Source: an uncultured bacterium (GTDB lineage Bacteria; Babelota; Babeliae; Babelales; Vermiphilaceae). Taken from it: a stretch of DNA of 64,000 nt. Both the position numbers and the translations under genes were made by a program. Each line of letters begins with the position of its first letter. Position 1 is the first letter of the stretch. Where the stretch lies: the NCBI GenBank assembly GCA_963702025.1, contig OY969699.1:1184001-1248000 (forward strand), in the 5' to 3' direction. Below the pieces are notes generated by a model. That model saw nothing but the letters and a program-made list of their open reading frames with translations. It was not told the origin of the DNA and did no database searches. Positions 30,234 to 54,232 of this stretch are shown here, one piece after another.

Positions 30234-31847
30234 TCAAAAGTCTGCATAAGAGACATTTTTTGCACGCAAATGAGCAAGATTTCCGGTAAGCCGCGCAAGA
30301 AAATCTTCATATTTTTTTTGTTCCGGCTTACACCATGCAGTCTCTGCAAGAGCCATTAATCGGGGGCATACCATATATTCAACCTGTTCAGATGTCGGCA
30401 TATATTCGGTCCAAACATTAGCCTGCACGCCCATAATATTTTTTGCTTCTTGCGCCGTCAATGCGGCAGGAATCGGTTCATAGTCATATACCAATTGCAA
30501 CGGTAAGTAACCACCAATCGCAAGCGGCTCGAGCGATGATTTACTTTGATAATAATCAAAATAAAGTGATTCGTTTGGCGTCATTATTACTTGATGATTC
30601 ATTTGAGCCGCATGAATGCCTCCTTCAATTCCCCGCCAAGACATTACCACAGCATTGGGAGCAACTCCGCCTTCTAATATTTCGTCCCACCCGATAATGG
30701 TTCGCCCATTTTTATTAAGATATTTTTCTATACGCCTAATAAAATAACTTTGTAGTTCATCTTCATCTACTAATCTTTCAGATGCTATACGCGTTTGGCA
30801 TTTTGCGCATGATGCCCACCGGGTCTTTGGCGCTTCATCGCCACCAATATGGATATATTTGCTCGGGAAAAGCGCCATTACTTCATCAAGAACATTTTCT
30901 AAAAAGATAAACACCTGATCATTGCCCGCACAATAAATATCCTCAAAAACGCCCCATTTAGTACCCGTTACATGTCTTGCATCACGGCAAGCAAACTCAG
31001 GAAACGCTGCCAACACTGCTGCCGAATGGCCCGGCATTTCAATTTCCGGTATTATGGTCACCTGCCGCTGGGCAGCATAGGCAACAATTTCTTTTATTTC
31101 TTCCTGAGTATAGTAACCGCCATAGGCTATGCCATCATACTTATGCGGACGTTCGTATAAATGTCCATGCAATGTTTGCTCACGATAAGCAGCCACCTGC
31201 TGCAGCTGAGGATATTTTTTTATTTCAATGCGCCATCCTTGATCGTCAGTTAAGTGCCAATGAAAAGTATTTAATTTATATGATGACAAAAGATCAATAT
31301 ATTTTTTTATAAATTCAACACTAAACATATGGCGCGCCACATCAAGATGTAATCCCCGATACGCAAATCGAGGTTCATCGTAGATTGTTACGCAGGGCAC
31401 AGAAATTGCGCCACTCTTAATTATCAAACCCCGTTCAGCTACCGGAGGCAACAGTTGCCGCAACGTTTGAAATGCCCAAAAAGCACCGATTGCACTACCT
31501 GCTTTAATATGAATTTTTTCGGGGGTAATGGAAAGTTCATATGCTTCAGGGTGTTTTATTGAGTCATCAATAACAATCTGAATAGATGCCATTTCTAAGC
31601 GGGAAGCTAAACAAATTTCACCAGTCGCCAGTGCCAAAAAGTCTGCAATAAAAAAAACCACTTTTTTAGTATCTTCTGTCCAGGGGCTAATCCAAATACT
31701 GGTTTTACTGGTGATTGAAAAAGTCCCGGAAGCAGGTAACAGGGTAACTGGCTTGGGAATAAGAGGATAGCGCTTTGCAAGATCATCTGCCTGCGCACAT
31801 ACTATTATCAATACACATAAACCTATCATCGACAAACTATTTTTCAT
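30234..31847 (-). CDS. Beta-N-acetylhexosaminidase (GH20), exported
   Basis: PRFAYRGLHLDVARH, HLTDDQGWR, HIGGDE. Confidence 0.93.
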   Translation of the reverse strand: MKNSLSMIGLCVLIIVCAQADDLAKRYPLIPKPVTLLPASGTFSITSKTSIWISPWTEDTKKVVFFIADFLALATGEICLASRLEMASIQIVIDDSIKHPEAYELSITPEKIHIKAGSAIGAFWAFQTLRQLLPPVAERGLIIKSGAISVPCVTIYDEPRFAYRGLHLDVARHMFSVEFIKKYIDLLSSYKLNTFHWHLTDDQGWRIEIKKYPQLQQVAAYREQTLHGHLYERPHKYDGIAYGGYYTQEEIKEIVAYAAQRQVTIIPEIEMPGHSAAVLAAFPEFACRDARHVTGTKWGVFEDIYCAGNDQVFIFLENVLDEVMALFPSKYIHIGGDEAPKTRWASCAKCQTRIASERLVDEDELQSYFIRRIEKYLNKNGRTIIGWDEILEGGVAPNAVVMSWRGIEGGIHAAQMNHQVIMTPNESLYFDYYQSKSSLEPLAIGGYLPLQLVYDYEPIPAALTAQEAKNIMGVQANVWTEYMPTSEQVEYMVCPRLMALAETAWCKPEQKKYEDFLARLTGNLAHLRAKNVSYADF

Positions 31848-32118
31848 ATTTTTACCATTCTTTTGACGATTATCATTAAAACAACATGCAGAACAGAATA
31901 TCACAAAAATAATTTTACGTGAAAACTTTACATCCCTGGCAAAATCATCCTGACATGCTACACTTGAACGGTAATATTAAGCCCATTTAAAGAAAATATG
32001 ACTAAAAAAATAAGGATCTTTTGTGGACCAAATACACCGTGCGAGCAGAACAACAAAATTACTCTATTTAGAAAATTTCAGTCCAATGCCGGCAACTTAA
32101 ACATTAGAAAATTCATTT

Positions 32119-32423
32119 TTAATCGCCTTCCAGGCGGTGGCCAAAGGGTGTTAAATCTGAACACCCTTTGGAATCCCCAGACCAAGGCTGCGCCTTTGGA
32201 TCCCTCATTTCGTGCCAATTCGCGACCTCGCGCTTCGCGCTCCAATCGCTCAGTGGCACTTGTCTGAATTTACTTATTAAACTAAAAATCAGCAGAAAAA
32301 TCCGTTCATGGTGAGTGCCGCCTGCAGCGCAGCGTATCGAACCATAAAAAAGTTTCTAAGTTAGAAACAAAATGTTCGTAAGCAAAAATAACTGAGCCCG
32401 CTCGGGCGCTTTCGCGACCGGCT
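32119..32423 (+). repeat. Long structured repeat, left copy
   Basis: Inverted homolog of 40599-40927; core ~32119-32309 nearly identical. Confidence 0.9.
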
Positions 32424-32815: not shown

Positions 32816-33700
32816 TTAAGAATCAAAGCTATTAGTATTTTGTACGTTCGTTGTAAATTGCCCTTTCAATTGAGAAGCATCTTCATTCGAATTACTTTCT
32901 TCAAAGTAATCAGGCAACTCTGAATTTTCAGGACTTATTGAGTTTGTTATTTCTTCTTTTTCGCTACAATGCGGTATCACTTGAGCTACTTGTACAGCTT
33001 TCTCATTGTCATTTGGTTGCGGTGATTTTTTCTCAATAAAAATACTACAGTATTTTTTTAAATCTTTATGCTGCTCAATAAACTGAGCTATAACACCAGC
33101 ATCATTATAGACAATAATATTTTCGCAATTATATTTGCTCGCTTGATTGGTCATATTATATGAACCGTTAATTAACAATTTCCCTTTGCCGATTTCTTTA
33201 TCAAAAAATATCATAAATTTATGATGCATTTTTTGCATAGCATTCGATGGTTCACGTCTTTTATTTTGAATTAAGACCTGGATTCCCGCTTGAGAAAGTT
33301 TGTTTAAGGTATTTGCATCTTGTTGTCCCGCTTCCCTATCAACAATCAGTAAATCATCTTTAGGCGATGTTTTATAGATATCTGCTTTCATAATGGCATT
33401 AATATCATTGCGAGCGCGCGCTTTTTCAAATTCTTGAATATATTTTCTTCCCGCCCACCATGATGTTAAATTATCAGCATTAATACGATAATAAGCAGCC
33501 CAAATTGGCCCTTCTTCAGTCACCATCAAATTTTTGATCGCATCTTCAATGTGGGGAGTAAAATAAGCCTTTGGGTAGACAATTAACTCTTTTTTTTCTT
33601 GCTTTTCTTCGATCTTCTGTTTCTTTTGTGCGCTTTGCTCCATAGCAAAAACAGAAGCACACTGTGCCGCCAAAAGAGTTATGAAAAGTAATTTTTTCAT
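32816..33700 (-). CDS. Exported single-HKD phospholipase D/Nuc-like protein
   Basis: HHKFMIFFD (HxKx4D), GSYN, downstream EN; signal peptide ending AME. Confidence 0.85.
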   Translation of the reverse strand: MKKLLFITLLAAQCASVFAMEQSAQKKQKIEEKQEKKELIVYPKAYFTPHIEDAIKNLMVTEEGPIWAAYYRINADNLTSWWAGRKYIQEFEKARARNDINAIMKADIYKTSPKDDLLIVDREAGQQDANTLNKLSQAGIQVLIQNKRREPSNAMQKMHHKFMIFFDKEIGKGKLLINGSYNMTNQASKYNCENIIVYNDAGVIAQFIEQHKDLKKYCSIFIEKKSPQPNDNEKAVQVAQVIPHCSEKEEITNSISPENSELPDYFEESNSNEDASQLKGQFTTNVQNTNSFDS

Positions 33701-33717
33701 GATATTTTCTCCATTTT

Positions 33718-35250
33718 TTAGTCGTTATTAAAATTCTTTGCAGAGCTTTTTAACTTTACTACTTTGTCATTCTGAGAAACTTTTTTTCTCAGCTCTTCTT
33801 TGCGTTCTTTTGCCTTGTTTTTAGCGATTTCATGTTTTCTATATTTTCCCGCAATTATTTCTTTTTGCTCTTTTGATAGATTCATATATTCTTTTGCTTT
33901 TCTTCGCTCTTCTTTGGTCGCATTGCCCACAATGTCTTTTATTTTATTAAATTCGTCAGCTCTCATTCGCTTTCTTGCTCTCGAGTTTGATTTTTTTTCA
34001 AGCAACAGCATGTAATACTTCATTATGCATGCAACGTTATCCAAACTTACGTTCGACTCATTTGTATTTTCTTTTATTTCTGACAATTCAATTTTGCCAG
34101 ATGACTTCTGTTCTTTTTTCATTTTAGACTTAGATTCAGTTAAATCAGAACCATGCAAAGGATTAAAAAATCTGTGATAGCAACAACTATCAGCAAAGAA
34201 GATCTCAAAGGTTCCGTAAATTATTTTACCTTTTATTACCATAGATCCTGGCAATAATACTTTTGTTTCATTTTTATTTGTTTCGAAGAACCCGTATTTT
34301 TTTGCATAGTCATCAATTCTTAATGGGAATGCATGAAAAGGTATCGCATATTTTGCTGTAGTAAATCTATGATTATTCGGGTCGCGATAGCCGCCCTCTT
34401 GCAAATTTATCTCAGGATTTTTATACCACTTACTGATAGTCTGCGTAGTCGATTCATACCAAAATGCAGGCATTGACTCGTCCTTAACTTGGTAAAGATA
34501 TATCGATGTATTATTTCTTTTATCGACAACTTCAAAAACTCTTTTAATATTAGTAAGCTCTTTTTTCAGTTGATCGCCGAGAGCGTAGGGATGCAATACA
34601 TCATTAACAAATAAATCTTTTTCATATTCTGTAAATTCATACTTTTGAGCTATTTGTTCTTTTTTAATAGTGAGATGCTCCGTATTTAGATTTAAACTCT
34701 CAATTCCTATTATAAAGTTTTGTATGGATAAACGAACTAGCCTGATAGTTTCCTTCACATTATTTGCAAGATTTTCATTTATATGGACAGATGGTTTCAA
34801 TAATTCCACTAGCCGTGCATGTTCCTTTAGATATTTAATGAACACGGTATCAATGTACTGTGTCGATTTATCTAAATCAGTAATGGTATTTTTCTCAACG
34901 TTGCATATCTTTTCGATAATGTTATCTATTAAGCCAAGTCGAAAACTTTCTTGCGATAGCTGTGCCTGAAAAAGAGCTAAATTACAAAGAATTTGATTTT
35001 TATCTTCACACGATGCAAAATTCTCTTTTGCTATTTTTGTTTCAATTTTTTGTACTTTTTTATTAAGAGCCTGAACTTCATCGAGAGCCTTAAGATGGAT
35101 GATGGCTATTTCAGAGAAGATTTGACGCAACTCTGCTTTGGTGGTCTTTCGTTCTGATATTTCTAATGCGTTGTTCGGGTTAGGTATTTCCATTGCTTGA
35201 GCCATGAAGGGAAGCATACCTGCTACAATAAGAATTCTATAATTAAACAT
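33718..35250 (-). CDS. Exported coiled-coil protein with 'YHR' domain
   Basis: Signal ending AME; KWY..FHAF..IDD..GTFE..CYHRFF; Lys-rich tail. Confidence 0.8.
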   Translation of the reverse strand: MFNYRILIVAGMLPFMAQAMEIPNPNNALEISERKTTKAELRQIFSEIAIIHLKALDEVQALNKKVQKIETKIAKENFASCEDKNQILCNLALFQAQLSQESFRLGLIDNIIEKICNVEKNTITDLDKSTQYIDTVFIKYLKEHARLVELLKPSVHINENLANNVKETIRLVRLSIQNFIIGIESLNLNTEHLTIKKEQIAQKYEFTEYEKDLFVNDVLHPYALGDQLKKELTNIKRVFEVVDKRNNTSIYLYQVKDESMPAFWYESTTQTISKWYKNPEINLQEGGYRDPNNHRFTTAKYAIPFHAFPLRIDDYAKKYGFFETNKNETKVLLPGSMVIKGKIIYGTFEIFFADSCCYHRFFNPLHGSDLTESKSKMKKEQKSSGKIELSEIKENTNESNVSLDNVACIMKYYMLLLEKKSNSRARKRMRADEFNKIKDIVGNATKEERRKAKEYMNLSKEQKEIIAGKYRKHEIAKNKAKERKEELRKKVSQNDKVVKLKSSAKNFNND

Positions 35251-35454
35251 GTTTTTCTCCACTTTTGATCTAATATTTTGACCTATACTTATAAGCTTAG
35301 CCCAAATACACTTATTGTCAAATAGAAATTAATAATGTACTTCTACCCTGTTTTGCCTCTTTAGCCCCCCAAATTAGCCCATTTTAGCCCATTTAAATAA
35401 TTTCTACTTGCAATTAGTAACGCCTATGCTATGCTATGGTTTATGGAGGATTTT

Positions 35455-37287
35455 ATGAAATTATTCAAATTACTATCAATTTTTACGTTTATTACTGTTA
35501 TTTCTCATAACGCCCAAGGAATGGAGGCCCAAAAGCCTACAGCGTCAGGGTATACGTCACAATTTATCCCGCCTAACCAATCAGCTAAGGATGTGCTTCG
35601 TAATGGGCAAATTTTAGGCACAAATGAAGAGCCCCAACAAATGATCGAACGCGTAGTGAATGCTATTGCTTCAATAGATAAAGATCTGAACCTTAAAAAT
35701 ATGCTTTCAACTACTGAATTTGCTCAGCAATTGGGCATACTTATGGATGAGCATGCGATAGTATTAAGCACCCCAATTTTAACCAATGCGGGCAACTCTG
35801 AAAATAGACCCCTTTCTGCCTGCGTGATGCCCCCTGTCAATTTAAGAGACGATTTAAAGAAAATTAAACCAATAGTAGATAAGTACCATCAAGATGGTAT
35901 GGGTACCGGGTATAATTTATCAGATGCTCTTGATCCGATTGAAACCCTTACATCCCTTAATAAGGTTGCAGTAGAAGGCGCGCAAAGTAAAAAAGAAAAG
36001 CGTCCAGTTGGCAATATGGCAATTCTGGATGTTGATTCTCCTGATATTGAAAAATTTGTCATGGCAAAAGTAGGAGCAGATGATCGGGGGGAGGACTGGA
36101 AATTTAACATTTCAGTAAATATTAATGATGCATTTATGGATGCAGTTGAAAACAATCGCGAATTTACGCTCAAAAATAGTACCAAGATTTCAGCCAAAGA
36201 ACTGTTTAAAAAAATGGCATATGCGGCACACCAATGCGGTGACCCTGGCCTTATTTCCCTTGAACGATTAAATGCCGATAATCCAACACCAAGTGTCGGC
36301 GAATACAAATGTACCGCTCCCTGCGCGGAAGTTGGATTGGCACCCGGCGAAACATGTGTGTTTGGTTATATTAACTTAGCTAAATTAGTAACCAATGATG
36401 CGCAACCTTCAGTGAATTTTGATCGATTAAAAACTGTTGTCACCTTGCTCACGCGCGCACTCGACGATATTCTGGAAATAAGCATTCAACGATATTCTAT
36501 CGAAGAAAGCAAAACAGTAATGCAAGCCAAAAGAAAAATTGGTCTCGGAATTTGTGGATTTGCTGACATGCTTATGGCGCTCAACATTCCTTATGATTCA
36601 GACCAAGCGCGCAATCTTTTACAAGATATTCTTAATTTTATAAGTTATCATTCAAAAGAAGCTTCTTTTGAATTAGCCAAAACTCGCGGATCCTTTACCG
36701 CAATCGGCGATAGTAAATTTATGGATGAATCATTTATAATGAACAAATATGGCAGCCTTAAAACGCCCCATGTTTCACGCGAACAATGGCAATCATTGGC
36801 CAAAAAAATCAAGGAAACCAAATTGCTCCGCAATGCAACAACAAGTGCTTTACCGCCCACTGGCAGAAGTGCGATGGTTATTGGCGCTTCAACAGGAATT
36901 GAGCCGGTATTTAGCCTTAATTCTTCAGATGGCATACATCCATTGTTGTACACATTCTTAAAAAAGTATTCTCTGCATGAAAATACCGCGATCGTTGATG
37001 AAATTAACAAAACCGGTTACGCACCACAAACAATTAAAGCAATGAATCCTTCTTTTGTAACGGCTACTGAAATAGCGCCAAAAGATCATCTTGCTATGGT
37101 TATTGCTGCGCAGAAAGCTATCGATGAATCAATATCAAAAACAATCAACTTACCGGAACAAACAACGCCGGAGCAAATCGAAGAGATTTACAAGAATGCC
37201 TATGCACAAGGATTAAAAGGAATGTCCGTGTTTAGAAATAATTCACGTTCCTTTCAACCTAAGAAATTGACGGATGAAAAAAAATAA
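35455..37287 (+). CDS. nrdJ: Divergent class II (B12-type) ribonucleotide reductase with signal-like N-terminus
   Basis: LSACV, GDPG, APCAE, GLGICGFADML, PPTG..STGIEP, SISKTIN, LKGMSVFR. Confidence 0.8.
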   Translation: MKLFKLLSIFTFITVISHNAQGMEAQKPTASGYTSQFIPPNQSAKDVLRNGQILGTNEEPQQMIERVVNAIASIDKDLNLKNMLSTTEFAQQLGILMDEHAIVLSTPILTNAGNSENRPLSACVMPPVNLRDDLKKIKPIVDKYHQDGMGTGYNLSDALDPIETLTSLNKVAVEGAQSKKEKRPVGNMAILDVDSPDIEKFVMAKVGADDRGEDWKFNISVNINDAFMDAVENNREFTLKNSTKISAKELFKKMAYAAHQCGDPGLISLERLNADNPTPSVGEYKCTAPCAEVGLAPGETCVFGYINLAKLVTNDAQPSVNFDRLKTVVTLLTRALDDILEISIQRYSIEESKTVMQAKRKIGLGICGFADMLMALNIPYDSDQARNLLQDILNFISYHSKEASFELAKTRGSFTAIGDSKFMDESFIMNKYGSLKTPHVSREQWQSLAKKIKETKLLRNATTSALPPTGRSAMVIGASTGIEPVFSLNSSDGIHPLLYTFLKKYSLHENTAIVDEINKTGYAPQTIKAMNPSFVTATEIAPKDHLAMVIAAQKAIDESISKTINLPEQTTPEQIEEIYKNAYAQGLKGMSVFRNNSRSFQPKKLTDEKK

Positions 37288-37310: not shown

Positions 37311-37775
37311 ATGATGAACACCGATATTTTTGCAGCACAGCTTATTAAAACCGCGCTGGAGGATGGCATACAAAAGCTCTCCGTTGGCGCGGCTTTTCTT
37401 CATGAAGGCAAATTGCTCATTCTTAAGCGGTCCGCTCATGATTTTATGCCAAACATATATGAACTCCCGGGAGGCGCGCTAGAGAAAGATGAATCTTTGC
37501 TCCAAGCCCTGGAACGAGAATTGCTCGAAGAAACAAATTGCTCCATCGATAAAGTTATCGGCTATATTGGCCATATAGATTTTCTCTCATCATCGGGATT
37601 GCGCACCCGACGATTTAATTTCTTAATTCAACCGAAATTACCACTATCAGTTCAATTAACCGAACATGACGATTATCAATGGATTATCCCCTCAGCTGCA
37701 GTCAACTACCAGATTACGTCAAAAACACGCACAATGATTGCTCACGTGCAGAAGAATGATATTCATCGATTTTGA
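37311..37775 (+). CDS. NUDIX hydrolase
   Basis: PGGALEKDESLLQALERELLEETN Nudix box. Confidence 0.88.
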   Translation: MMNTDIFAAQLIKTALEDGIQKLSVGAAFLHEGKLLILKRSAHDFMPNIYELPGGALEKDESLLQALERELLEETNCSIDKVIGYIGHIDFLSSSGLRTRRFNFLIQPKLPLSVQLTEHDDYQWIIPSAAVNYQITSKTRTMIAHVQKNDIHRF

Positions 37776-39460: not shown

Positions 39461-40285
39461 TCACTTCTGATCCACGGGGCAATAATAGGCGGATCTACCG
39501 GCGATCGTAACTTTTTTTAGCTTATGTTTGGCATTTTTTGGGCAAAGCATGTCGGTGTGCCGATGCGCCTGCAAGTAGGAAGATTTAAATTCAGAGGCTT
39601 CCTGCGGCGACCAATGTTGTGATGTGCCAATATCTTTATTTTTAATCCGCACTTTAATTGCGTAGCTTAACACCGCGCGCATCTGCCGATACATCTTTTG
39701 AATCACTTGGGGCGATAAATCTTTAACACTGTGGTGCGGATCAATGTCTGCTTGAAACAATATTTCATCCGAATATTCGTTACCGATTCCGGCAATTACC
39801 GTTTGATCCATTAAAAACGCTTTAACATTTTTCTTCTTATTTTTCTCAACAAGAGCTTCAAATACAGACAAAGAAAGTTGTAACGGATCAGGGCCCATTT
39901 CTTTGAGAGCCTTAATATCATCAAGTGAATCTACCAGCCAAATTCTGCCAAACTTTCTAACCGAACAATAATGGAGATCCTCTTTTGCAAATGAAAAATC
40001 GACGCAGGAAAAACGTACCGTTTCACCTGGCTTGCCCAGCACTAAAAATCCGGTGAGGCCAAAATGCATAACCAATTTTTCTTTGGATGAGGTGGTCACA
40101 ATAAGATATTTACCCATGCGCGCGGCTGCAGTAAATGAAACACCCGTGAGACTTTTTTTAAATTGCGCAGAACTTATTTTTTCCAGCAAACGGCCGCATG
40201 AAACCGTTACATCGGTTACCTTTTTATTAAGGCAATGGGTGGCAACATAGTGGGTAAATGCTTCGACTTCCGGTAGTTCTGGCAT
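39461..40285 (-). CDS. mutM: Fpg/Nei DNA glycosylase
   Basis: MPELPEVE, RMGKY, HFGLTG, LMDQ..AGIGNEYSDE. Confidence 0.85.
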   Translation of the reverse strand: MPELPEVEAFTHYVATHCLNKKVTDVTVSCGRLLEKISSAQFKKSLTGVSFTAAARMGKYLIVTTSSKEKLVMHFGLTGFLVLGKPGETVRFSCVDFSFAKEDLHYCSVRKFGRIWLVDSLDDIKALKEMGPDPLQLSLSVFEALVEKNKKKNVKAFLMDQTVIAGIGNEYSDEILFQADIDPHHSVKDLSPQVIQKMYRQMRAVLSYAIKVRIKNKDIGTSQHWSPQEASEFKSSYLQAHRHTDMLCPKNAKHKLKKVTIAGRSAYYCPVDQK

Positions 40286-40427
40286 ATTCATCCTTTATTT
40301 ACATTTCTTGCAGCGGTGTGCATTTGAAAAATTAACACGCATCTATACCCTAATAAGCATGATTGATTAATGTCAATAAGTTACATATGGGGCAATGTAA
40401 AATTTCTTGAGTAGTCATTTATTACAC

Positions 40428-40598: not shown

Positions 40599-40927
40599 AG
40601 CCGGTCGGCGGAGTTTATCCTGAGCTTGTCGAAGGGCGCCCGAGCGGGCTCCTGTTATTTTTTCTCTTTAACTTAATTGTGCTAACTCAGAAAGTTTTTT
40701 CATGTTCAATAAACTATGCTGCGCGCACCGCTCAGTATGAACGGATTTTTCTGCTAGTTCTTAGTTTAATAAGTAAATTCAGACAAGTGCCACTGAGCGA
40801 TTGGAGCGCGAAGCGCGAGGTCGCGAATTGGCACGAAATGAGGGATCCAAAGGCGCAGCCTTGGTCTGGGGATTCCAAAGGGTATTCAGATTTAATACCC
40901 TTTGGCCACCGCCTGGAGGGCGATTAA
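40599..40927 (-). repeat. Long structured repeat, right copy
   Basis: Inverted homolog of 32119-32423. Confidence 0.9.
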
Positions 40928-41034
40928 TAAATAATATTCCTACCGCTGGCCGCGTAGGCCAAATTAAAAATAAATTTCTTAATGCTATAATTTGCGAGCA
41001 AGCAAAATTCGAGGAATTAAACCTGCAGAGTTTT

Positions 41035-41460
41035 TTAAACAATCGCTAATACTTTATCCGATTGTATTCTTGAAACACACGTTTCAATAATTTTTTTATG
41101 CGGTTCAAATATAGTTTCAGGTAATTGCGCCATATCAAAAAAACACCATTCTTCACATAAATCCGGTTCCATCGTTGCTATGGTGCCGGTAAATTTATGA
41201 AGCAAAAAAGACATGTGCAGATAATGCCGCTGCTCGGCAATACTATCAATAACGCTCAGCAATGTGAATTCTAACCCCTCGATACCCAATTCTTCTTTTA
41301 ATTCTCGTTTTGCGCACTCTATAAGCGTTTCTCCATATTCTAAGTGCCCACCGGGCAGGGCCCATGTTCCGGCGCCGTAGCAATTCTTTCTTTTGCCCAA
41401 TAATAAAGCGTTATCTTTGACGATAAATATCTCACAGCCTATTTTTATTATGTTGTTCAT
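41035..41460 (-). CDS. NUDIX hydrolase (MTH2/NUDT15-like)
   Basis: PGGHLEYGETLIECAKRELKEELG; EPDLCEEW. Confidence 0.88.
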   Translation of the reverse strand: MNNIIKIGCEIFIVKDNALLLGKRKNCYGAGTWALPGGHLEYGETLIECAKRELKEELGIEGLEFTLLSVIDSIAEQRHYLHMSFLLHKFTGTIATMEPDLCEEWCFFDMAQLPETIFEPHKKIIETCVSRIQSDKVLAIV

Positions 41461-46405: not shown

Positions 46406-48211
46406 ATGAAAAAGAATTTATTATTTTGTATCAGTTTTATTGTAAGTTGCTCTGCATTTGCAATGCAGCTTCCTCGCGGAAAAAACCTAGATGAGCTTAT
46501 TTCACTGCCATTAAATCAGTTTGAAATGGAATTAAAAAATAATCATGCCCTACTCAATCAGCGCGACGATCAAGGTAAATCATTATTAGTCAAAGCAATA
46601 GAGCAAGAGAAAATCGCCCATATAAAAACTCTATTAACCACCGGCGCAAATCCGTGGATAAAAGACAAGAATAATGAATGTGCAGTGCATGCGATCGGCA
46701 AAGTGGGCAACCTTGAAATTGCCCGCCTTATTATACGAAAACATGCAGAAGATCCTAACTGGAAAGAGATCAATGCGCTTGGCGCAGGACAAAATCCATG
46801 TTCCTATGCAAATCAATATAAACATTATGGCTGCGCAACTTTTCTTTGGAATTATAATCGAAACAAAGATAAAAACCCTTTGTTTCAAGCATTGATGTAT
46901 GGGGATTTGCATACTTTAGATTCATTGCTCGACACAGAATCTAAGGTTAATGAGGAAGTATCAGCAGATTTTAATGTTTCATGTTTACCATTAGCTTGGG
47001 CTGTATACTTAGAAGATGAATCGCTGGTGGACTATTTGCTAAAAAAAGGAGCAAAAATATATCTCAAAGATTGCGGCATAAGTCCATGGCAATGTGCAGC
47101 ACATTCGCCGCGCATCAAAAAATTAATGCAAAAGTACGACAATAGTATGCAAATACGAGATGAGTTTTTCAAAGCAATAATAGAAGAAGACGTTGGCATT
47201 ATCAAGCATCATCTTAATAAAAATGGGGCAAAGTTGATTCCAATGTTACGATTCGAACAAAATAGTCCCTTACAAATCGCGATAATAGCCGGCAAAGTGA
47301 AAAGCCTCGATATTTTATGGAAAAGATTGCCCAAGTCGTTGTTTACAACCCAACAACATCAAGCACCTCTCTTGTTTCTTGCTTGCACACAGAACAAAAA
47401 AGAAATTATTCAGTACCTTGGAAATCTAAACGGATTAACAGGAATTAATCCCAAATTTGATTATTTAGCTGAATATTGGCCTTTCCGTTACTACATTTCT
47501 GACGACATTAAACAAGAAATATTCGCTCTGTTCAATAAATATGAAAAAGGTTTTTCTGAAAATAACCCTCAGGAATATATTACTCACGCAGCGCGCTATA
47601 GAAGAATAGAATTAATCAATAAAGCATTGGAATTAGGAGCAAACGTTAATGGGTATGGACTTAAAAAGGGTCTTACTGCTCTTCATTGGGCTTGCATTAA
47701 GGGAGATCCAAATGCAATTGCATATTTATTAAATAGAGGTGCGAATCCAAATATAACTGATGGTGAAAAAAAAAGAAGTTGTTTTCGCTTAATGTTGAGA
47801 ATGCATGAGACATCACTCAAAAAGAAAGGTGAACAATTATCAACAAGTGCATTATTACCTTGCTATTTTCTGCTAATATGCAGTGGTGCTAACCCTAAAA
47901 TTAAAGATATTTATGGCGATGACATTTTTGATTGGATTAAATGCCAAAAAATGACCGCTGTCGAAAAAGATTTAATTGTCGAAATTTTATGCTTAGACAG
48001 CACTTCAAAAAAACAATGTAGAGTTATTTTAACTAAAATCAAAGAATTTCAAGAAACAGAACACAAAAATGCTTTAAATGCTGGTGATGAAAGGAAAGCC
48101 ACTGCCATTAAGTCATGTTTTGTTGCTGAAAATAATCAATATATGAGTATGTTAATAGGAAAATCAAAGAATGATGCTTTCAAAGATATCTATGAAAAAT
48201 ATATTGATTAA
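46406..48211 (+). CDS. Exported ankyrin-repeat protein
   Basis: GKSLL..A, GLTALHWAC, GANPN; paralogous to 52244-54232. Confidence 0.88.
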   Translation: MKKNLLFCISFIVSCSAFAMQLPRGKNLDELISLPLNQFEMELKNNHALLNQRDDQGKSLLVKAIEQEKIAHIKTLLTTGANPWIKDKNNECAVHAIGKVGNLEIARLIIRKHAEDPNWKEINALGAGQNPCSYANQYKHYGCATFLWNYNRNKDKNPLFQALMYGDLHTLDSLLDTESKVNEEVSADFNVSCLPLAWAVYLEDESLVDYLLKKGAKIYLKDCGISPWQCAAHSPRIKKLMQKYDNSMQIRDEFFKAIIEEDVGIIKHHLNKNGAKLIPMLRFEQNSPLQIAIIAGKVKSLDILWKRLPKSLFTTQQHQAPLLFLACTQNKKEIIQYLGNLNGLTGINPKFDYLAEYWPFRYYISDDIKQEIFALFNKYEKGFSENNPQEYITHAARYRRIELINKALELGANVNGYGLKKGLTALHWACIKGDPNAIAYLLNRGANPNITDGEKKRSCFRLMLRMHETSLKKKGEQLSTSALLPCYFLLICSGANPKIKDIYGDDIFDWIKCQKMTAVEKDLIVEILCLDSTSKKQCRVILTKIKEFQETEHKNALNAGDERKATAIKSCFVAENNQYMSMLIGKSKNDAFKDIYEKYID

Positions 48212-48311
48212 TTAAATACGCATTTCATATCAATTGAAATCTTAAAACTATTGCATACCTACAGTAATCAATACTACTATTAAGGTAAAGTTTTTCTTTA
48301 AGGAGTATCCG

Positions 48312-49736
48312 ATGCTTTCTCTAAAAAAAATTCTACTATTTAGCTTTATTTTGATAAATCAGCAAAACCCTCTATATGCAATGGAACTTTCTGAGAAACC
48401 TTTCAAAACGGCATTAAGCGAAAATGATAGCGATCTTCTTAGCGCATTTTTAACTAATTATAGAAGTCGCAGTTTCTTCTCTTCAAGATCAACCCAAGAC
48501 CTGGAGAAAATAATATCTATTTCCTATGACATTCTGGATGATCCAAGAGAACTTGAAAACATTAGCGGCTATGCATTACCGATCATCTATAGCGAAATAT
48601 TAAATGAAATAATAGCAAACGCGACCTTAGAACTAGAAAAAAGAAATTCTAATGAAGCTGAGATAAAAAATATTTTACCCATATTAAAGCCAAGTGGCGG
48701 CGTTACACCCAAAAAAGAACCTCCTGCTCCCGTGCTAAAATCAAGCGGTGCTAAACCCAAACAAATAGCTCCTTCAGGGAGCAAAATTGCTCTCAAAAAA
48801 ATTATACAAGCAGAAATCAAGGGCGAAATCGACTATCTGAGTACACGCTCTAACTATACTTTAGAGAAAGCGATAGAACTAGTAAATGAAACTCTTAATA
48901 ATAATGCGGCATTCACCGCTCTTAAAAAAGAACTCGGCCTACCGAAAGAGCAATTAAGATCTGTTCTAGAAAGAATAAAACAAAAAGCCTCGATCGCATT
49001 ACGGCTCGCTCAAAATAAAGCCCAAATACCTTTGCAAGAAAAAAGAATTCCAGAAAAAATTCTAGCCACCGCACCAATAATACCTGCAATAGTCAAACAG
49101 GAAGAACCTGAAGAAGAAGTGCAAGCCAATCAATTATATATCGGACTCGATGTGAAAGAATTTAACAGTAACGGGCAACCTATTCGGTGGCAAGATTCAA
49201 TTGATGCGATGCAAGCTCAAATCAAAGATGCAGATTTTGTCCCAAATGATTATTTTCATATTACCATTGCATGGTATGAGGCAAAAAATCCATTAACACC
49301 GGAAATAATTGCACGGGTGGAACGCGCGCTTGCCAATGCATCACAAATATTAAAAATCGTATTTCCGCAAGGCGTTACCGGCATTGCACTGCTTGACAGT
49401 GCTGTTTTGTTGGGCAATAAAAACGCAACCGTAGCATTTAGAGTTGCCGAATCGGCTGATCTAAAAAAACTGCAAGATATCTTACTTAAGTTCCTCTCAT
49501 TTGAGAATATAGGAGACTTCAAATTTAATACGTTCGAAAAAGACACTCCAATTCATGTAACACTAGGCAAAATACGATCAAAATCGACACGGCAATATCA
49601 AAATGCTGCAGCAAACTTGCATGCCCCTGAAGGCGCTCGCGCATCGCAAAAGCAAAGTTTTACTATCAATACTTTCAGATTAACCTATTCTTTAGCCGGA
49701 CAAGCATGGCAGGAGAAAATGTCATATAAATTTTAA
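48312..49736 (+). CDS. Exported protein with C-terminal 2H phosphoesterase domain
   Basis: Two HxT motifs (FHITI, IHVTL); signal ending AME. Confidence 0.75.
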   Translation: MLSLKKILLFSFILINQQNPLYAMELSEKPFKTALSENDSDLLSAFLTNYRSRSFFSSRSTQDLEKIISISYDILDDPRELENISGYALPIIYSEILNEIIANATLELEKRNSNEAEIKNILPILKPSGGVTPKKEPPAPVLKSSGAKPKQIAPSGSKIALKKIIQAEIKGEIDYLSTRSNYTLEKAIELVNETLNNNAAFTALKKELGLPKEQLRSVLERIKQKASIALRLAQNKAQIPLQEKRIPEKILATAPIIPAIVKQEEPEEEVQANQLYIGLDVKEFNSNGQPIRWQDSIDAMQAQIKDADFVPNDYFHITIAWYEAKNPLTPEIIARVERALANASQILKIVFPQGVTGIALLDSAVLLGNKNATVAFRVAESADLKKLQDILLKFLSFENIGDFKFNTFEKDTPIHVTLGKIRSKSTRQYQNAAANLHAPEGARASQKQSFTINTFRLTYSLAGQAWQEKMSYKF

Positions 49737-49840
49737 GGAACTAATTCTTTTCAAAAAAATATAAAATCATATACTTTTGATCTACGGGTAGGATGAAACA
49801 ATTTAAAAATATTTACACCACAAGCAGAAAGGCCTATGCC

Positions 49841-51484
49841 ATGCAATTTTTAACCATACTTCCTTTAACACTACTTTGTTCCGCACTTCTTCTTCCGGCA
49901 ATGGAAATCCCAAACAAAAAACCATCATCAAAAAAACCAGAAAGCAACCCTCTCCTTATGATGATGCTTATTGGGGAAGGTAGACCTCATGATGCATTAC
50001 TTCTTAAAGCAATGGATTCTGATGATCCAAAAGAAGCGTACGGGATTCTTGACGGGTTAACCGAACTTAATTCAAATGAAAAATGGCACGCGGGAGCCCT
50101 AATATATAAGGGCCAAATGCTTGCAAAAGGTGAAGGTGTAAAGCAAGACAGAAATGCAGCACTTGATTGTTATCTAGCTTGTTATAAAAAGCACCGTGAT
50201 CCAATGGCATTGCTTACCATTGGCAATCACTATGAAGAAGAATCAAAAACAGCTGATGAATTTGAAAAAGCAGCCGGCTATTTCAAAAAAGCGTTCGCAA
50301 ACGGCACTGGTGATCCCATGGCAGGCTATCGTTATGCGCGCCTTATCTATAATGAAAATATCAAACCGGAACATGAAGAGGTAACGGATATACTCAAGTA
50401 TGCGGCTCCCGCTGTAGTCAACTCTATAACAGAGGCCCTCTATTTATTTGCTTCAACATTGCTCGATAATAATCATGATTCATTTGCTGAACTTGGCTTA
50501 CCAGCATTTTTACAAGCAGCCAAGCAAGGTGATGCCTTTTCTGCCCTGCAATTGGGAATTTTTTACAAAAATGGTTTATATGTACCAAAAGATAAAGAAT
50601 TTGCGCAAGCTATCTTTAATAAAGCATTAGCCACGGAAGATACCCCACTCAACATGACAGCAAAAGCATACATGTACAAACATGGGTTAGGGGTTGCAAA
50701 AGATACCGTTAAAGCAAAAAAACTTCTTGATGAGGCACGTCCATCACTGGATGCAAATCAGAGCTTTATTGATAATCTTTTTTGCAGCGAAGATGATAAG
50801 CTGACTGCGATTTCTGATCCAGCAATGCTACGCACCCAACCAATAGCTGCACAAGAGGTAAATCAACCCGTTCTGCCCAAACCGACTCAAATTGTGGAAT
50901 CCAAAGAACCAACAGATCTTAAGATTGAAAAACCGGTTCAAAAGAATGATGAAAAAAAGGATGCACTCATTGTTCCCATAAAAAAAGAGATCTCTCATAA
51001 AACTCTACTCGATAAATGCAATGAGCTTTCGCTTAAGCAAGATGGCAGCTCATTGGAAATCGATATAAAAAATAACAAAATCTTTGTTCATGATCCACAA
51101 TATAAGAATGAATTTATTGTTCCATTTGAAGAGGCTGAATTTCAACACAATGCAAATATTGTTCAATTTATGTACGACAAACGAATAAAAGCATGGTTTA
51201 CCAAAACGTTAAAAAAACTAAAGGCTGATCCTGAGATTCGATGGAAAATCAGCACCCACCGGTTTGGCAAAGCAGTTGACTATCTTATGCAATTGGTTGG
51301 CCTAAAAAATCCTTTTGTTGGTAAGAAAAAAGATAATGATCGTTTATTGCATGAAGCTGAATCGATAACGCAAAAAAATCGAGGCCATTTTGAATATACC
51401 TTTAGAAAACAAGGCGCAAATGCAATTCTTTACCATCGCCATTATCGACCTTATAAAGCTGAACCTAAAGAAAAACCAAAATAA
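49841..51484 (+). CDS. Exported Sel1-repeat protein with 'YHR' domain
   Basis: GEGVKQD, LG.FY.NG..VPKD, GLGVAKD; YDKRIKAWF..HRF..VD..FEY..YHRH. Confidence 0.85.
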   Translation: MQFLTILPLTLLCSALLLPAMEIPNKKPSSKKPESNPLLMMMLIGEGRPHDALLLKAMDSDDPKEAYGILDGLTELNSNEKWHAGALIYKGQMLAKGEGVKQDRNAALDCYLACYKKHRDPMALLTIGNHYEEESKTADEFEKAAGYFKKAFANGTGDPMAGYRYARLIYNENIKPEHEEVTDILKYAAPAVVNSITEALYLFASTLLDNNHDSFAELGLPAFLQAAKQGDAFSALQLGIFYKNGLYVPKDKEFAQAIFNKALATEDTPLNMTAKAYMYKHGLGVAKDTVKAKKLLDEARPSLDANQSFIDNLFCSEDDKLTAISDPAMLRTQPIAAQEVNQPVLPKPTQIVESKEPTDLKIEKPVQKNDEKKDALIVPIKKEISHKTLLDKCNELSLKQDGSSLEIDIKNNKIFVHDPQYKNEFIVPFEEAEFQHNANIVQFMYDKRIKAWFTKTLKKLKADPEIRWKISTHRFGKAVDYLMQLVGLKNPFVGKKKDNDRLLHEAESITQKNRGHFEYTFRKQGANAILYHRHYRPYKAEPKEKPK

Positions 51485-51549
51485 AACATACCGCCAAGAT
51501 TGGATCTAATTACTTCGAATCAATTTAATTGTTGTTTTTAGGAAACACT

Positions 51550-52074
51550 ATGAAACTATATCATGCATATTCATTTGCCTTGTGCGCTTTCTTCACTGCA
51601 ACTGCCATGCAAAAACCAACCTCTTCTCTTGAGTTACTAAATGCCACTAAATATAACGATATGGAAACGGCTAAAAAACTGATAGAAGCAGGAACTGAAG
51701 TAAATGAACAATCCCACCGTGGCGAAACGCCTCTCTTTTATGCAGTCAGCAACCTCAATCTGCCGATAGTTAAACTATTGCTCGAAAAAAAAGCTAATCC
51801 GAATATCCAAACGAGCAATGAATGCGGCTATAATGGCATGACACCTTTGATGTTAGGCGCAGCGCGAGCTATCAAAGAAAATTTTTCTACGGTAAAGGAA
51901 ATTATCCAATCACTTTTAGAAGCAAACGCTGATCAAACCGTACATGATAGCCTTTATCGTTTAGCATCCTTTCATGTATGCATCAACTTCAATATTAGCG
52001 AAGCACAACAAGATGAACTGCTTACTTTATGTGCTAATAATGATCTAAAAAAGCGCAAAGAACAAAAACCGTAA
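51550..52074 (+). CDS. Exported ankyrin-repeat protein
   Basis: GETPLFYAV, GMTPLMLGA; signal ending AMQ. Confidence 0.88.
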   Translation: MKLYHAYSFALCAFFTATAMQKPTSSLELLNATKYNDMETAKKLIEAGTEVNEQSHRGETPLFYAVSNLNLPIVKLLLEKKANPNIQTSNECGYNGMTPLMLGAARAIKENFSTVKEIIQSLLEANADQTVHDSLYRLASFHVCINFNISEAQQDELLTLCANNDLKKRKEQKP

Positions 52075-52243
52075 CTCTCTCGGACAAACTAAAATAATTT
52101 TCTAGCTATTCAATGGAGCCACAAAGAGAGCAAACGAAACTAAAAAGAATTTTTTAAAAAAAAATAGAAAAACACTATACTTTTGATCAATCACTTACCT
52201 GAAATCATAAAAAAATAGTTACGAATGTATGTTAGGGATCATT

Positions 52244-54232
52244 ATGAAGTATGTACTACTTTCTATTTCATTTCTTTTTTCATCATTTCTTGTCGCCATG
52301 GAGATGCCGCCACATAAAGAAAATGCGGATGCAGAAAAAAATAATGATCTGTTACTACGCGCAAGCGTACGCGGCCATGGCAATGTGCATGAATTGCAAC
52401 AGGCCATCGCGCACGGCGCCGACGTTAACACCTACCTTCACACCACGTGCCAGCATGGCAAACCGCACAACATTGCTCTTTTACTCGCGCTTGGCGCCGA
52501 CCCTAATACCATCGATCCGGACACCCTCTTAACACCCCTACAACGGCTTTGCGTAAGCCATGACAAAAAAATAATAAATACTGCGGAATTATTGCCCTGC
52601 TCATTTTTGCTCGCAGCAGCCGGCGCAGAACCGGAGATAACCTGCTATGATTCAACTGTTTTTGACTGGGCAATGATGCGTCCGTTTGCAATTTCTACCA
52701 AACAACTTCTGCAACGAGTCTTTGATGCCTATATACCCTCTGAATCAAAGAGCATAGAAATCGTAAAAGATATTTATCATTTTCAAATAAAAGAATTACA
52801 AGAATGCAAAAATAACATTAATGATCCGGACATTGCCTTAAGAGCGTTCCGCATTAACGCATGTTTGGTCGGGTACTATAAAAAATCGCCGGTTGATTTT
52901 ATCACCGGCCAATTTTGTTGCGATCCAATCTACTTGCAACATGTACCGTCACCAAAAATAGATATTTCAGAATCTTTAGTTGGCAAAAATATGACACAAA
53001 AAGATTTAAAGCAGGAATTAAGAACTCACACTCACAAACTGAATCTCCCCAATCAGCATGGCACAACGTTACTTATGGAAGCGGTGCAAGCAAATGATTC
53101 ACAACGAGTACAAACACTCATTAATTCCGGCGCCGATATATATGCAGTAGACAATGAAGAGCAAACAGCCTTGGATATTGCTGCAAAAAAAGGATCATTG
53201 GAAACCATTCGCATTCTGCTCAAAGAATATGATGCACATAAAAAAATTCAACGGCACATGCCACAGATTCCGGCCCACCTGCATCCTGCAATCGTCAATA
53301 TTCTACAAAAGCCTACCGAGATTGCCGCGCGCAATCAGCATCCTGGTTGCTCACAACTTATTTTTAATTATAACAAATCCACCGATCCATTCTTTATGGC
53401 CCTACTCATGAATGATGCAAAAAAACTTGAAGAAATTTTTACCGAACAGCCCGAAAAAATTAAACAACCGCTCATCCTGCCCCGCTTGCCGGCAGTCACC
53501 CCTCTTGAATGGGCACAACTCATCGAAGATAAAGAGTTAATAACCTACTTACAAAAAAAAGGTGCGCAACCGGTGACCAAAAAATTTCAAGATGCATTGA
53601 GTGACAGCGTGCGTCATAACAATTTCAAAATACTCAAAAGTGCATTACGCGCCGGCGCGTTAATTAATGGCTATGATTCTAAAGGGAACACCGCGCTGTT
53701 GTGGGCATGCAGTGTCGGCAAGCCGGAAGTTATTTCTTTGCTGATTCGCAAAGGAGCCGATTTGAATATTGATGATCGCGATAAACATCGTTGCGGCTTG
53801 CGCTGGCTCTTGCGCATGCATGATAGATCCCAAAAAAAGAATGGCCGTCAATTTACCACGAGTGAATTTTTGCCGCGACTGTTTTTACTTATCGATGGCG
53901 GCGCCGATACTAAAATAGTTGATGATCACGGCGAAAATATCCATGATTGGATCCTCAAACAAGGTTTTAGCGATGATGAATTTAGTTTAGTAACTAATAT
54001 TGTCTTTATGCACGAGAAGCGGCCCGAATCGCAAGAACTGTTCCGCGAATTACTCTTACATGCAATATATAACTTTCAAAATGAAGAACTCGAAAAGGCC
54101 CGCGCCGAGAAAGATCTTCTCAAGGCCAAAAATATTGAAAACGCCTTAGTTGGGGTTGAAGGGTATCGCGGAAAGGTATTTTTTGACAAAATGTACAAAA
54201 AAAAGCCTGTCCAAAGTGGTCAGGGGCAATAG
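52244..54232 (+). CDS. Exported ankyrin-repeat protein
   Basis: GTTLLMEAV, QTALDIAA, GNTALLWAC; signal ending AME. Confidence 0.88.
   Translation: MKYVLLSISFLFSSFLVAMEMPPHKENADAEKNNDLLLRASVRGHGNVHELQQAIAHGADVNTYLHTTCQHGKPHNIALLLALGADPNTIDPDTLLTPLQRLCVSHDKKIINTAELLPCSFLLAAAGAEPEITCYDSTVFDWAMMRPFAISTKQLLQRVFDAYIPSESKSIEIVKDIYHFQIKELQECKNNINDPDIALRAFRINACLVGYYKKSPVDFITGQFCCDPIYLQHVPSPKIDISESLVGKNMTQKDLKQELRTHTHKLNLPNQHGTTLLMEAVQANDSQRVQTLINSGADIYAVDNEEQTALDIAAKKGSLETIRILLKEYDAHKKIQRHMPQIPAHLHPAIVNILQKPTEIAARNQHPGCSQLIFNYNKSTDPFFMALLMNDAKKLEEIFTEQPEKIKQPLILPRLPAVTPLEWAQLIEDKELITYLQKKGAQPVTKKFQDALSDSVRHNNFKILKSALRAGALINGYDSKGNTALLWACSVGKPEVISLLIRKGADLNIDDRDKHRCGLRWLLRMHDRSQKKNGRQFTTSEFLPRLFLLIDGGADTKIVDDHGENIHDWILKQGFSDDEFSLVTNIVFMHEKRPESQELFRELLLHAIYNFQNEELEKARAEKDLLKAKNIENALVGVEGYRGKVFFDKMYKKKPVQSGQGQ

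Follow-up and report, generated by a model that had tools for sequence, protein, structure and literature searches.

We analysed a 64,000-nucleotide stretch of DNA (the window) from an uncultured bacterium of the Babelota (contig OY969699.1, positions 1,184,001 to 1,248,000) and found that the gene at 35455-37287 on its forward strand encodes a protein related to NrdJ, the class II ribonucleotide reductase (RNR). It belongs to a well-conserved variant of class II RNR that is not to be filed as canonical NrdJ: the active-site Asn and the allosteric effector site are lost, and the radical and redox residues are kept. As a tentative best explanation for these sequence features, we propose an accessory enzyme that would use thiyl-radical chemistry on a nucleoside diphosphate to make a special product within a small gene cassette and that, in this genome, would be exported. 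Below, G000 denotes the source genome (1.596 Mb, 95% complete) and P0001 its protein; other G, L and P labels are the genomes, loci and proteins of this analysis.

35445..35449, forward strand: Shine-Dalgarno sequence GGAGG, 5 nt upstream of the ATG at 35455
35455..37287, forward strand: P0001, 610 residues, NrdJ-derived protein of the APCxE branch (Pfam, TIGR02504, AlphaFold2 and fold match)

The open reading frame (ORF) gives a protein with the N-terminus MKLFKLLSIFTFITVISHNAQG-ME. Neither Met23 (35521) nor the upstream ATG at 35431 has a Shine-Dalgarno-like word at a working distance, and both were rejected as translation starts, since such support exists only at Met1; the start thus stays where the initial annotation, which had considered Met23 as the possible true start, had placed it. 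Pfam assigned an RNR barrel and an all-alpha domain. The AlphaFold2 model had a predicted local distance difference test (pLDDT) score of 92.3, with low values at residues 1-26, and its best structural match with Foldseek and VIA-align was the NrdJ of Thermotoga maritima (Z 41, root-mean-square deviation 2.2 over approximately 535 residues, 28-29% identity), which was also the best sequence match (E 1e-52). As modelled, P0001 has the NrdJ (class II RNR) fold, and the RNR-like reading frame with an APCAE motif that had been noted here was recovered at 35455-37287 in the alignment to T. maritima NrdJ. The closest named relatives are in Babeliaceae/Dependentiae genomes, at 58-62% identity. GC content over the gene (0.37-0.40 vs. 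0.39 genome-wide) was uninformative on horizontal transfer, and a viral origin was rejected as no relative was found among viral contigs and the best phage match was a canonical NPCGE enzyme.

To describe the active site, we counted residues in an alignment of 242 branch members, a set defined by the absence of the Asn, and 17 canonical NrdJ sequences, a small sample that also served for the trees. Ala288, Cys290, Glu292 and Cys301 of P0001 align with T. maritima Asn320, Cys322, Glu324 and Cys333, and Arg183 aligns with Arg207. The elements concerned, all on the forward strand, are the following:

35764..35775: apical phosphate loop LSTP, a variant of the diphosphate-type PNSP (alignment; motif type from excerpts of PMC8365446)
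35821..35823: Cys123 (LSAC), the beta-A redox cysteine, in 241 of 242 members
35908..35937: remnant of loop 1, G152-P161, 10 residues long where canonical NrdJ mostly has 24, with the effector-binding Arg gone
35959..36012: loop 2, remodelled with RPVG replacing RRGA, Arg183 retained (237 of 242)
36235..36237: Cys261, a branch-specific additional cysteine (201 of 242)
36316..36330: finger loop APCAE, with Ala288 replacing Asn, radical Cys290 and base Glu292
36355..36357: Cys301, the beta-F redox cysteine (239 of 242)
36553..36555: Cys367, a branch-specific additional cysteine (227 of 242) and the final Cys of P0001
36853..36870: distal phosphate loop PPTGRS, canonically APTGTI (alignment)
36895..36942: shortened beta-hairpin region downstream of GIEP (alignment)
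37219..37287: beta-J GMSVFR and a short Cys-free tail, of class II pattern, with no Tyr-Tyr dyad

Cys290 and Glu292 were invariant (242/242), the catalytic set of Cys123, Cys290, Glu292, Cys301 and Arg183 was retained in 237-242 of the 242 members, and no variation at Cys123 was seen when the branch was aligned to canonical NrdJ. The initial annotation had correctly seen the three active-site cysteines (Cys123, Cys290 and Cys301) and the change of NPCxE to APCAE. In T. maritima, Asn320 bonds the ribose 3'-OH, and the loop-2 Arg is the ligand of the substrate beta-phosphate (PMC4728125, Table 4), so loss of the Asn would be expected to affect sugar recognition. Of 3347 class II sequences, 3175 have the NPCxE motif, the remainder going undiscussed in the available excerpts of PMC9669993, and in those of the PASV preprint the Asn of NxCxE is treated as required in RNRs of class I and class II and serves as a filter for true ones. 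The beta-J Tyr-Tyr dyad is replaced by V592-F593, and P0001 lacks both this mark of class I and class O and their NLCxE/NVCLE motif. One might suspect a dead or non-radical protein that binds nucleotides or exchanges thiols on an RNR barrel, given that an essential Asn is lost (an Asn437Ala mutant was reportedly inactive in a mutagenesis study), the hairpin is shorter than usual and genes for the supply of adenosylcobalamin (AdoCbl) are missing from many carriers. We consider this very unlikely with the radical Cys and the Glu invariant, the redox pair almost invariant and beta-J still of class II pattern. Decay of a single gene was ruled out by the conservation of the changes throughout the branch.

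The effector site has been removed. Loop 1 is 10 residues long in 240 of 242 branch members vs. 24 in 16 of 17 canonical NrdJ, which bears out an earlier impression that the segment after GMGTGYNLS is short, and the word [LIV]R[PAG] containing the effector Arg occurs in 0/216 branch members vs. 15/17 canonical sequences. The effector ligands of T. maritima NrdJ are Asp141, Lys158 and Arg171 (PMC4728125, Table 4). In the branch, the position of Lys158 is mostly Gln or Glu and that of Asp141 mostly Leu, an Asp or Asn sitting one residue earlier and thus out of register; this offset depends on the numbering assumed for the beta-A Cys. Loss of the effector site argues against a role in balanced supply of deoxynucleoside triphosphates (dNTPs), and a loop 1 is found even in class O, the most minimal RNR with a solved structure, as described in excerpts of PMC9531940. 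The apical loop, x-S-T-P, is nearer the diphosphate type and matches neither of the published motifs PNSP and PxGR. In the hairpin, branch members mostly have 23-24 residues vs. 31-37 in canonical NrdJ. As first noted, the C-terminal Cys pair is missing, Cys367 being the last; tail Cys are absent in 202/242 branch members, whereas all 17 canonical sequences have two or more. At the column of Cys261, Cys is not among the four commonest residues in canonical NrdJ, and that of Cys367 is Met in 16 of 17. Judged from the alignment, the fixed changes ring the active site: the Asn, the apical and distal loops, loop 2, the hairpin and the two added cysteines.

These changes are common to a large group of proteins. 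Ala occupied the Asn position in all 119 best-scoring homologs, each reading APC[AG]E. A genome scan, with patterns that included APCxE, returned 80 loci from Dependentiae, the candidate phyla radiation (CPR), Micrarchaeota, Nanohaloarchaea and Actinobacteria; a metagenome scan, with patterns that did not include it, returned another 80 with 70 complete ORFs, some of them duplicates, and the Asn was missing in 70/70, replaced by A, P, S or V. A metagenome scan seeded with one Tistrella protein gave no match, and a search of the ESM Atlas gave generic B12-RNR clusters only. In a FastTree phylogeny of 263 sequences, the 242 Asn-less members formed one group apart from the 17 NPCxE sequences, and in an IQ-TREE analysis of a 58-row subset the split between the branch and canonical NrdJ had a Shimodaira–Hasegawa-like approximate likelihood ratio test (SH-aLRT) support of 100. 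The comparison with NrdJ suggested at the outset thus places P0001 in a separate branch, and the sequences indicate that this branch is monophyletic, NrdJ-derived and widespread over bacteria and archaea. It is apparently undescribed: a full-text search for the motif as APCAE, APCGE or APCxE together with the enzyme name gave no paper, and the literature searches, whose coverage left out most subscription papers, turned up neither the branch nor a secreted RNR. The class II sequence sets of Burnim et al. (PMC9669993, seen in excerpts) may contain it.

The genome has a canonical RNR as well, to which this gene is an accessory. The second RNR that the initial annotation wanted looked for was thus found: G000 carries NrdB beside a class Ia NrdA that shows the NLCTE motif, the Tyr dyad and a terminal CxxC, and the idea of P0001 as the sole RNR of the genome was rejected. 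Within the Dependentiae phylum, 10 of 261 genomes carried the branch gene, and none of the 7 genomes from the same genus did. We searched 50 carrier genomes, from 50 of the 78 loci first submitted, and found another RNR in 46: PF02867 in 34 (two being weak matches, afterwards assigned to the RTPR model), NrdD in 8 and RTPR-like in 4. In the remaining 4, small genomes of uncertain completeness, no other RNR was found. These four carriers agree with an unregulated but otherwise ordinary reductase that makes normal deoxynucleoside diphosphates and, with its NUDIX and CYTH partners, drains or skews nucleotide pools. So do the retention of all reduction residues but the Asn, an apical loop nearer the diphosphate type and the TIGR02504 score: at 406.6, P0001 lies just above the cut-off of 399.95 for this curated model of ordinary AdoCbl-dependent NrdJ. 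This alternative is possible though on the unlikely side, as G000 already has NrdAB, the Asn is treated as required and nearly always present in class II, and the fixed changes at the sugar and phosphate sites exceed what loss of regulation needs. Part of the same alternative is its exported form in Dependentiae, in which host nucleoside diphosphates would be reduced for uptake or the host or co-infecting viruses starved; the alternative is favoured by three TLC-family nucleotide transporter genes and leader-bearing kinases in G000, such transporters being described for Dependentiae in excerpts of PMC4776705 and PMC6561590, and by a signal-bearing microsporidian hexokinase proposed to raise host nucleotide supply (excerpts of PMC5113988).

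As to other RNRs of the phylum, the Dependentiae genomes G265, G267, G273 and G278 (sub-branch B) and G226-G228 carry class III NrdD, which is unexpected in presumed protist parasites, and class Ia was not found in the four genomes of sub-branch B. One family of the phylum (L093-L100) retains canonical NrdJ with an adjacent BtuR, beside a tRNA-synthetase-like gene; BtuR adjoins the canonical NrdJ in all eight of these related genomes, whereas the accessory gene of G000 stands beside a NUDIX gene.

37311..37775, forward strand: NUDIX hydrolase, 154 residues, leaderless (Pfam), 23 nt past the stop of the enzyme

This NUDIX gene, already noticed as directly downstream, is one instance of a wider linkage: the enzyme is linked and fused to nucleotide hydrolases and kinases. 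The enzyme is likewise followed by a similar NUDIX gene in four related genomes of Dependentiae, and P0011 and P0029 are fusions of the enzyme with a NUDIX domain. With neighbour profiles built from members of the same loci, most of them Pfam-verified, and with related loci not independent of each other, the first downstream gene was NUDIX-, CYTH- or nucleotide-kinase-like in 69 of 80 loci (3/8 in Dependentiae, 33/35 in CPR, DPANN and others, 33/37 in Actinobacteria); such genes occurred beyond 3.5 kb in only 2 loci, 53 loci having full flanks. In the metagenome set, a partner was within 2 kb or fused in 44/70, including NUDIX and HD fusions, and further kinase-type neighbours appeared among the 39 scanned of 72 unlabelled genes. 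A GreA-like gene was within 2 kb in 19 of the 35 CPR, DPANN and other loci, and an XRE-type helix-turn-helix (HTH) gene adjoined in 32 of the 37 actinobacterial loci.

Such neighbours could also belong to a salvage or house-cleaning route for ribonucleotides that are modified or damaged, such as those of host RNA with a substituted sugar; the NUDIX, CYTH, HD and kinase partners would then channel the substrate. The partners are classic sanitising families, the branch is frequent in CPR, DPANN and Dependentiae, all of which scavenge nucleotides, and the change of Asn to Ala may open space near the sugar hydroxyls. We nevertheless regard salvage as quite unlikely: the gene is very patchy in its own lineage, the actinobacterial HTH arrangement looks like an inducible accessory cassette, and the GreA-like neighbours are unexpected for plain salvage. 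Actinobacteria have full nucleotide synthesis, which argues further against salvage in these carriers.

In Dependentiae, the enzyme carries a putative leader, called with an in-house rule for the n, h and c regions and not with SignalP.

35455..35520, forward strand: predicted Sec-like leader (own rule), residues 1-22, ending in AQG ahead of Met-Glu

The translated leader of P0001 has all three regions with a small residue before the mature start, and in three relatives identity was 33-36% over residues 1-32 vs. 61-66% over the remainder. Leaders were found on 9 of 11 Dependentiae copies vs. 0 of 62 scored elsewhere (CPR, DPANN, others and Actinobacteria; 10 unscored), the two exceptions being G233, with no basic residue, and the deep-branching copy of G016, which is leaderless. 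Copies with a leader occur in two sub-branches that leaderless sequences separate, and one leaderless sequence, P0046, lies inside sub-branch A; the simplest reading of these trees is two acquisitions in Dependentiae, each then leader-tagged. By eye, leaders are absent from the canonical NrdJ and NrdA of the phylum; the rule flagged one canonical NrdJ, via an upstream Met. A rough version of the rule flagged 724 of 1515 called ORFs of G000, among them P-loop kinases and MiaA-like, HIT and HD proteins, and left most motif-found housekeeping proteins unflagged. Since nearly half of the proteins carry similar leaders, export would be a habit of the lineage. Of the soluble ORFs with a leader, 597 in all, 275 contain [AGSC]-Met at residues 16-29, and in 144 the next residue is Glu (examples in the window at 32816-35250 and 46406-54232); a Shine-Dalgarno sequence was present at the called start in 207/275 and at the internal Met in 1/275, the ORF caller favouring such sequences. 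A Met-Glu N-terminus is of the type acetylated by eukaryotic NatB, and the predicted mature starts resemble either NatB-like substrates or ancestral start codons.

Alternatively, the leader may be non-functional or translation may start at Met23, leaving the enzyme cytoplasmic like its CPR and actinobacterial kin, a question separate from that of its chemistry. The partner NUDIX is leaderless and Met23 is near the start of leaderless homologs; we judge this unlikely all the same, given the strong Shine-Dalgarno sequence at Met1 only and its genome-wide counterpart, the retention of hydrophobic leaders across divergent sequences in two sub-branches, and the mostly leaderless housekeeping proteins. 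The leader is probably real and reflects a phylum-wide habit. Of the exported or neofunctionalised radical enzyme initially proposed, the second part gained support from changes fixed across the branch, accessory status and a gene that travels with nucleotide hydrolases and kinases, and the first is plausible, as a prediction, for the Dependentiae copies only: most homologs lack the signal, as the annotation had feared, but most Dependentiae copies bear it. The altered active site predates the leader and occurs leaderless in CPR, DPANN and Actinobacteria; it is therefore not an adaptation to host manipulation.

In the special-product explanation that we tentatively prefer, AdoCbl would generate the radical at Cys290, because beta-J is of class II type with no Tyr dyad and no RNR small subunit was found among the selection of neighbour genes scanned. 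A hydrogen would be abstracted from the sugar, with Glu292 as the base and reduction by Cys123 and Cys301, and re-reduction would proceed without the tail, possibly via Cys261 and Cys367. Control by dNTPs would be absent, and the remodelled loop 2 would determine the substrate together with the phosphate loops. Chemistry of the RNR type, with a diphosphate as substrate, is suggested because the radical Cys, the Glu, the redox pair and the phosphate ligands are retained, a changed substrate or product because the Asn is lost and the loops are rebuilt, and a short pathway because the partner genes are fixed. The enzyme would then be the core of a NUDIX/CYTH/kinase cassette, with a single fixed nonstandard substrate or product likely; linked kinases would provide the diphosphate, and NUDIX, CYTH and HD enzymes would process or clear the product. 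The Dependentiae copy would leave by Sec and meet host-derived nucleotides in the periplasm, the vacuole or the host cytoplasm.

Besides the TIGR02504 score and the four carriers with no second RNR found, several results weigh against this explanation. As to the cofactor, no PduO, BtuR or B12-binding domain was found in the 95% complete G000, and no adenosyltransferase in the 8 remaining Dependentiae carriers from sub-branches A and B or in six leaderless CPR-type carriers (G269, G298, G276, G279, G280 and G285), whose other RNR is NrdA or NrdD. The shortened hairpin is the region thought to aid AdoCbl binding. The use of AdoCbl by P0001 is thus uncertain. Class II RNRs that lack tail Cys have been described (26% of zinc-finger-less tails; excerpts of PMC9669993), and rooting the FastTree phylogeny on class I left the node of the branch with a support of only 0.615. 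Five of the eight Dependentiae loci have no nucleotide-enzyme neighbour. For export, the leader rule yields false positives (SecA, CTP synthase and two NUDIX proteins), leaders are flagged on almost half of the G000 ORFs, the partner NUDIX has none, and the rejection of a single clade of leader-bearing copies (approximately unbiased test, P value 0.003) used groups named after the first tree had been seen.

Two arguments about the cofactor were dropped. The missing transferase cannot place the enzyme in the host, because leaderless carriers lack it too, and the finding of a transferase in all 8 apparent sole-RNR genomes does not show B12 use, because an RTPR-like NrdJ was found in 4 of them; in three other Saccharibacteria-type carriers, BtuR occurs together with a canonical NrdJ that reads NPCSE. 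B12-dependent RNRs occur in some protists (excerpts of PMC3019208).

The closest known system to P0001 is the dimeric class II NrdJd of T. maritima (PDB 1xje, 1xjn, 3o0o and 3o0q). Both have the radical Cys, the Glu, the redox Cys pair, the loop-2 Arg and a class II beta-J; P0001 differs in the Asn to Ala change, the deletion of loop 1 and effector ligands, the altered loop 2 and phosphate loops, the shorter hairpin, a tail with neither Cys nor zinc finger, two extra conserved Cys and the Sec-like leader. Class O RNR (Burnim et al. 2022; excerpts of PMC9531940) likewise has a minimal barrel with few insertions but has NxCxE (NVCLE), a TTP-bound loop 1, a Tyr dyad and a ferritin partner, none of which the branch has.

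A more distant parallel is with prokaryotic viperins, a radical enzyme with a linked nucleoside monophosphate kinase in 12% of bacterial viperins and, in some, fusion to a triphosphatase or cyclase domain (excerpts of bioRxiv 10.1101/2023.09.13.557418). By this analogy, the branch could be an RNR-fold counterpart that makes a chain-terminating nucleotide analogue or an immune signal, fired with the help of the leader into a protist host. Kinases would charge the product, NUDIX and CYTH enzymes and the GreA-like factor would protect the producer, and a TIR-like gene joins in two loci; Dependentiae would have added the leader twice, and the radical source might be other than their own B12. We consider this unlikely. 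Viperin has a radical S-adenosylmethionine fold and P0001 an RNR fold, P0001 had no match at E 1e-8 in PADLOC 2.0, among whose models there is none for this enzyme, and the analogy is one of working mode only. PADLOC on 140 selected neighbours, run without a background control, left most unmatched, with scattered DNA methyltransferases, PDC-M21A/B, PDC-M51B and VakA; enrichment in defence islands was not seen.

The cell biology of the phylum is compatible with export. The relatives of G000 are parasites of protists. In Chromulinavorax destructans, Phobius predicted leaders on 44% of proteins (PMC6561590), similar to G000, and Dependentiae/TM6 have Sec and two gspD secretins (excerpts of PMC4776705 and PMC6561590); G000 likewise encodes two secretins and signal peptidase I. 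A secreted RNR-like enzyme goes unmentioned in the excerpts of both papers, and P0001 is predicted to be a leader-bearing one. If true, export of an RNR-fold enzyme would give an intracellular parasite an unusual way of reaching host nucleotides, although the broad habit of tagging cytoplasmic enzymes with leaders tempers the significance. More generally, by dropping the Asn and loop 1 and keeping the radical machinery, the branch suggests either new chemistry on the RNR scaffold or a natural test of the need for the Asn and allostery. The NrdJ label that it receives from annotation pipelines would be misleading when the metabolism of CPR and DPANN is reconstructed. The cultured carriers Streptoalloteichus tenebrarius (L026), Saccharothrix (L035) and Tistrella mobilis (L128) make these ideas testable now.

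Some loci have further notable neighbours. Next to the enzyme and its kinases, divergent GreA-like proteins are found repeatedly, in which W-H/D-D-N/P replaces the usual acidic tip. An XRE-HTH fused to peptide deformylase is divergently oriented from the actinobacterial enzyme in L025, L030, L033, L042 (Pfam-checked), L046, L047, L055, L072, L074 and L077. Tistrella mobilis plasmid pTM3 (L128:8394-13331) and metagenome locus L145 share a four-gene operon of NUDIX, APCAE enzyme, PfkB kinase and TIR-like protein, which looks like a nucleotide-signal system; the TIR-like protein had a borderline CAP12/Pycsar TIR score of 24.6 against a cut-off of 24.7. PPCAE variants in L199, L202, L205 and L207 lie tail-to-tail with very large WD40-repeat proteins. 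A leader-bearing adenylate kinase, P-loop kinases and MiaA-like, HIT and HD proteins may form an exported nucleotide-handling set, and further genes of interest, among them a leader-bearing one, lie near the enzyme in the window.

L010:4299-4790, L011:4981-5517, L071:8087-8617 and others: divergent GreA-like genes adjoining the enzyme and its kinases
L084:3998-4711 and G000 C1 684703, 1013177, 1107720, 1077212, 127203, 490855 and 200702: leader-bearing nucleotide-handling genes
32816-33700: leader-bearing PLD-like gene
30234-31904: GH20 hexosaminidase
39461-40291: Fpg glycosylase
41035-41460: second NUDIX

Finally, two spurious-looking ORFs, 31998-32267 on the forward and 40779-41042 on the reverse strand, have approximately 50 identical codons in common and mark an inverted repeat of about 150 nt that flanks the gene region.

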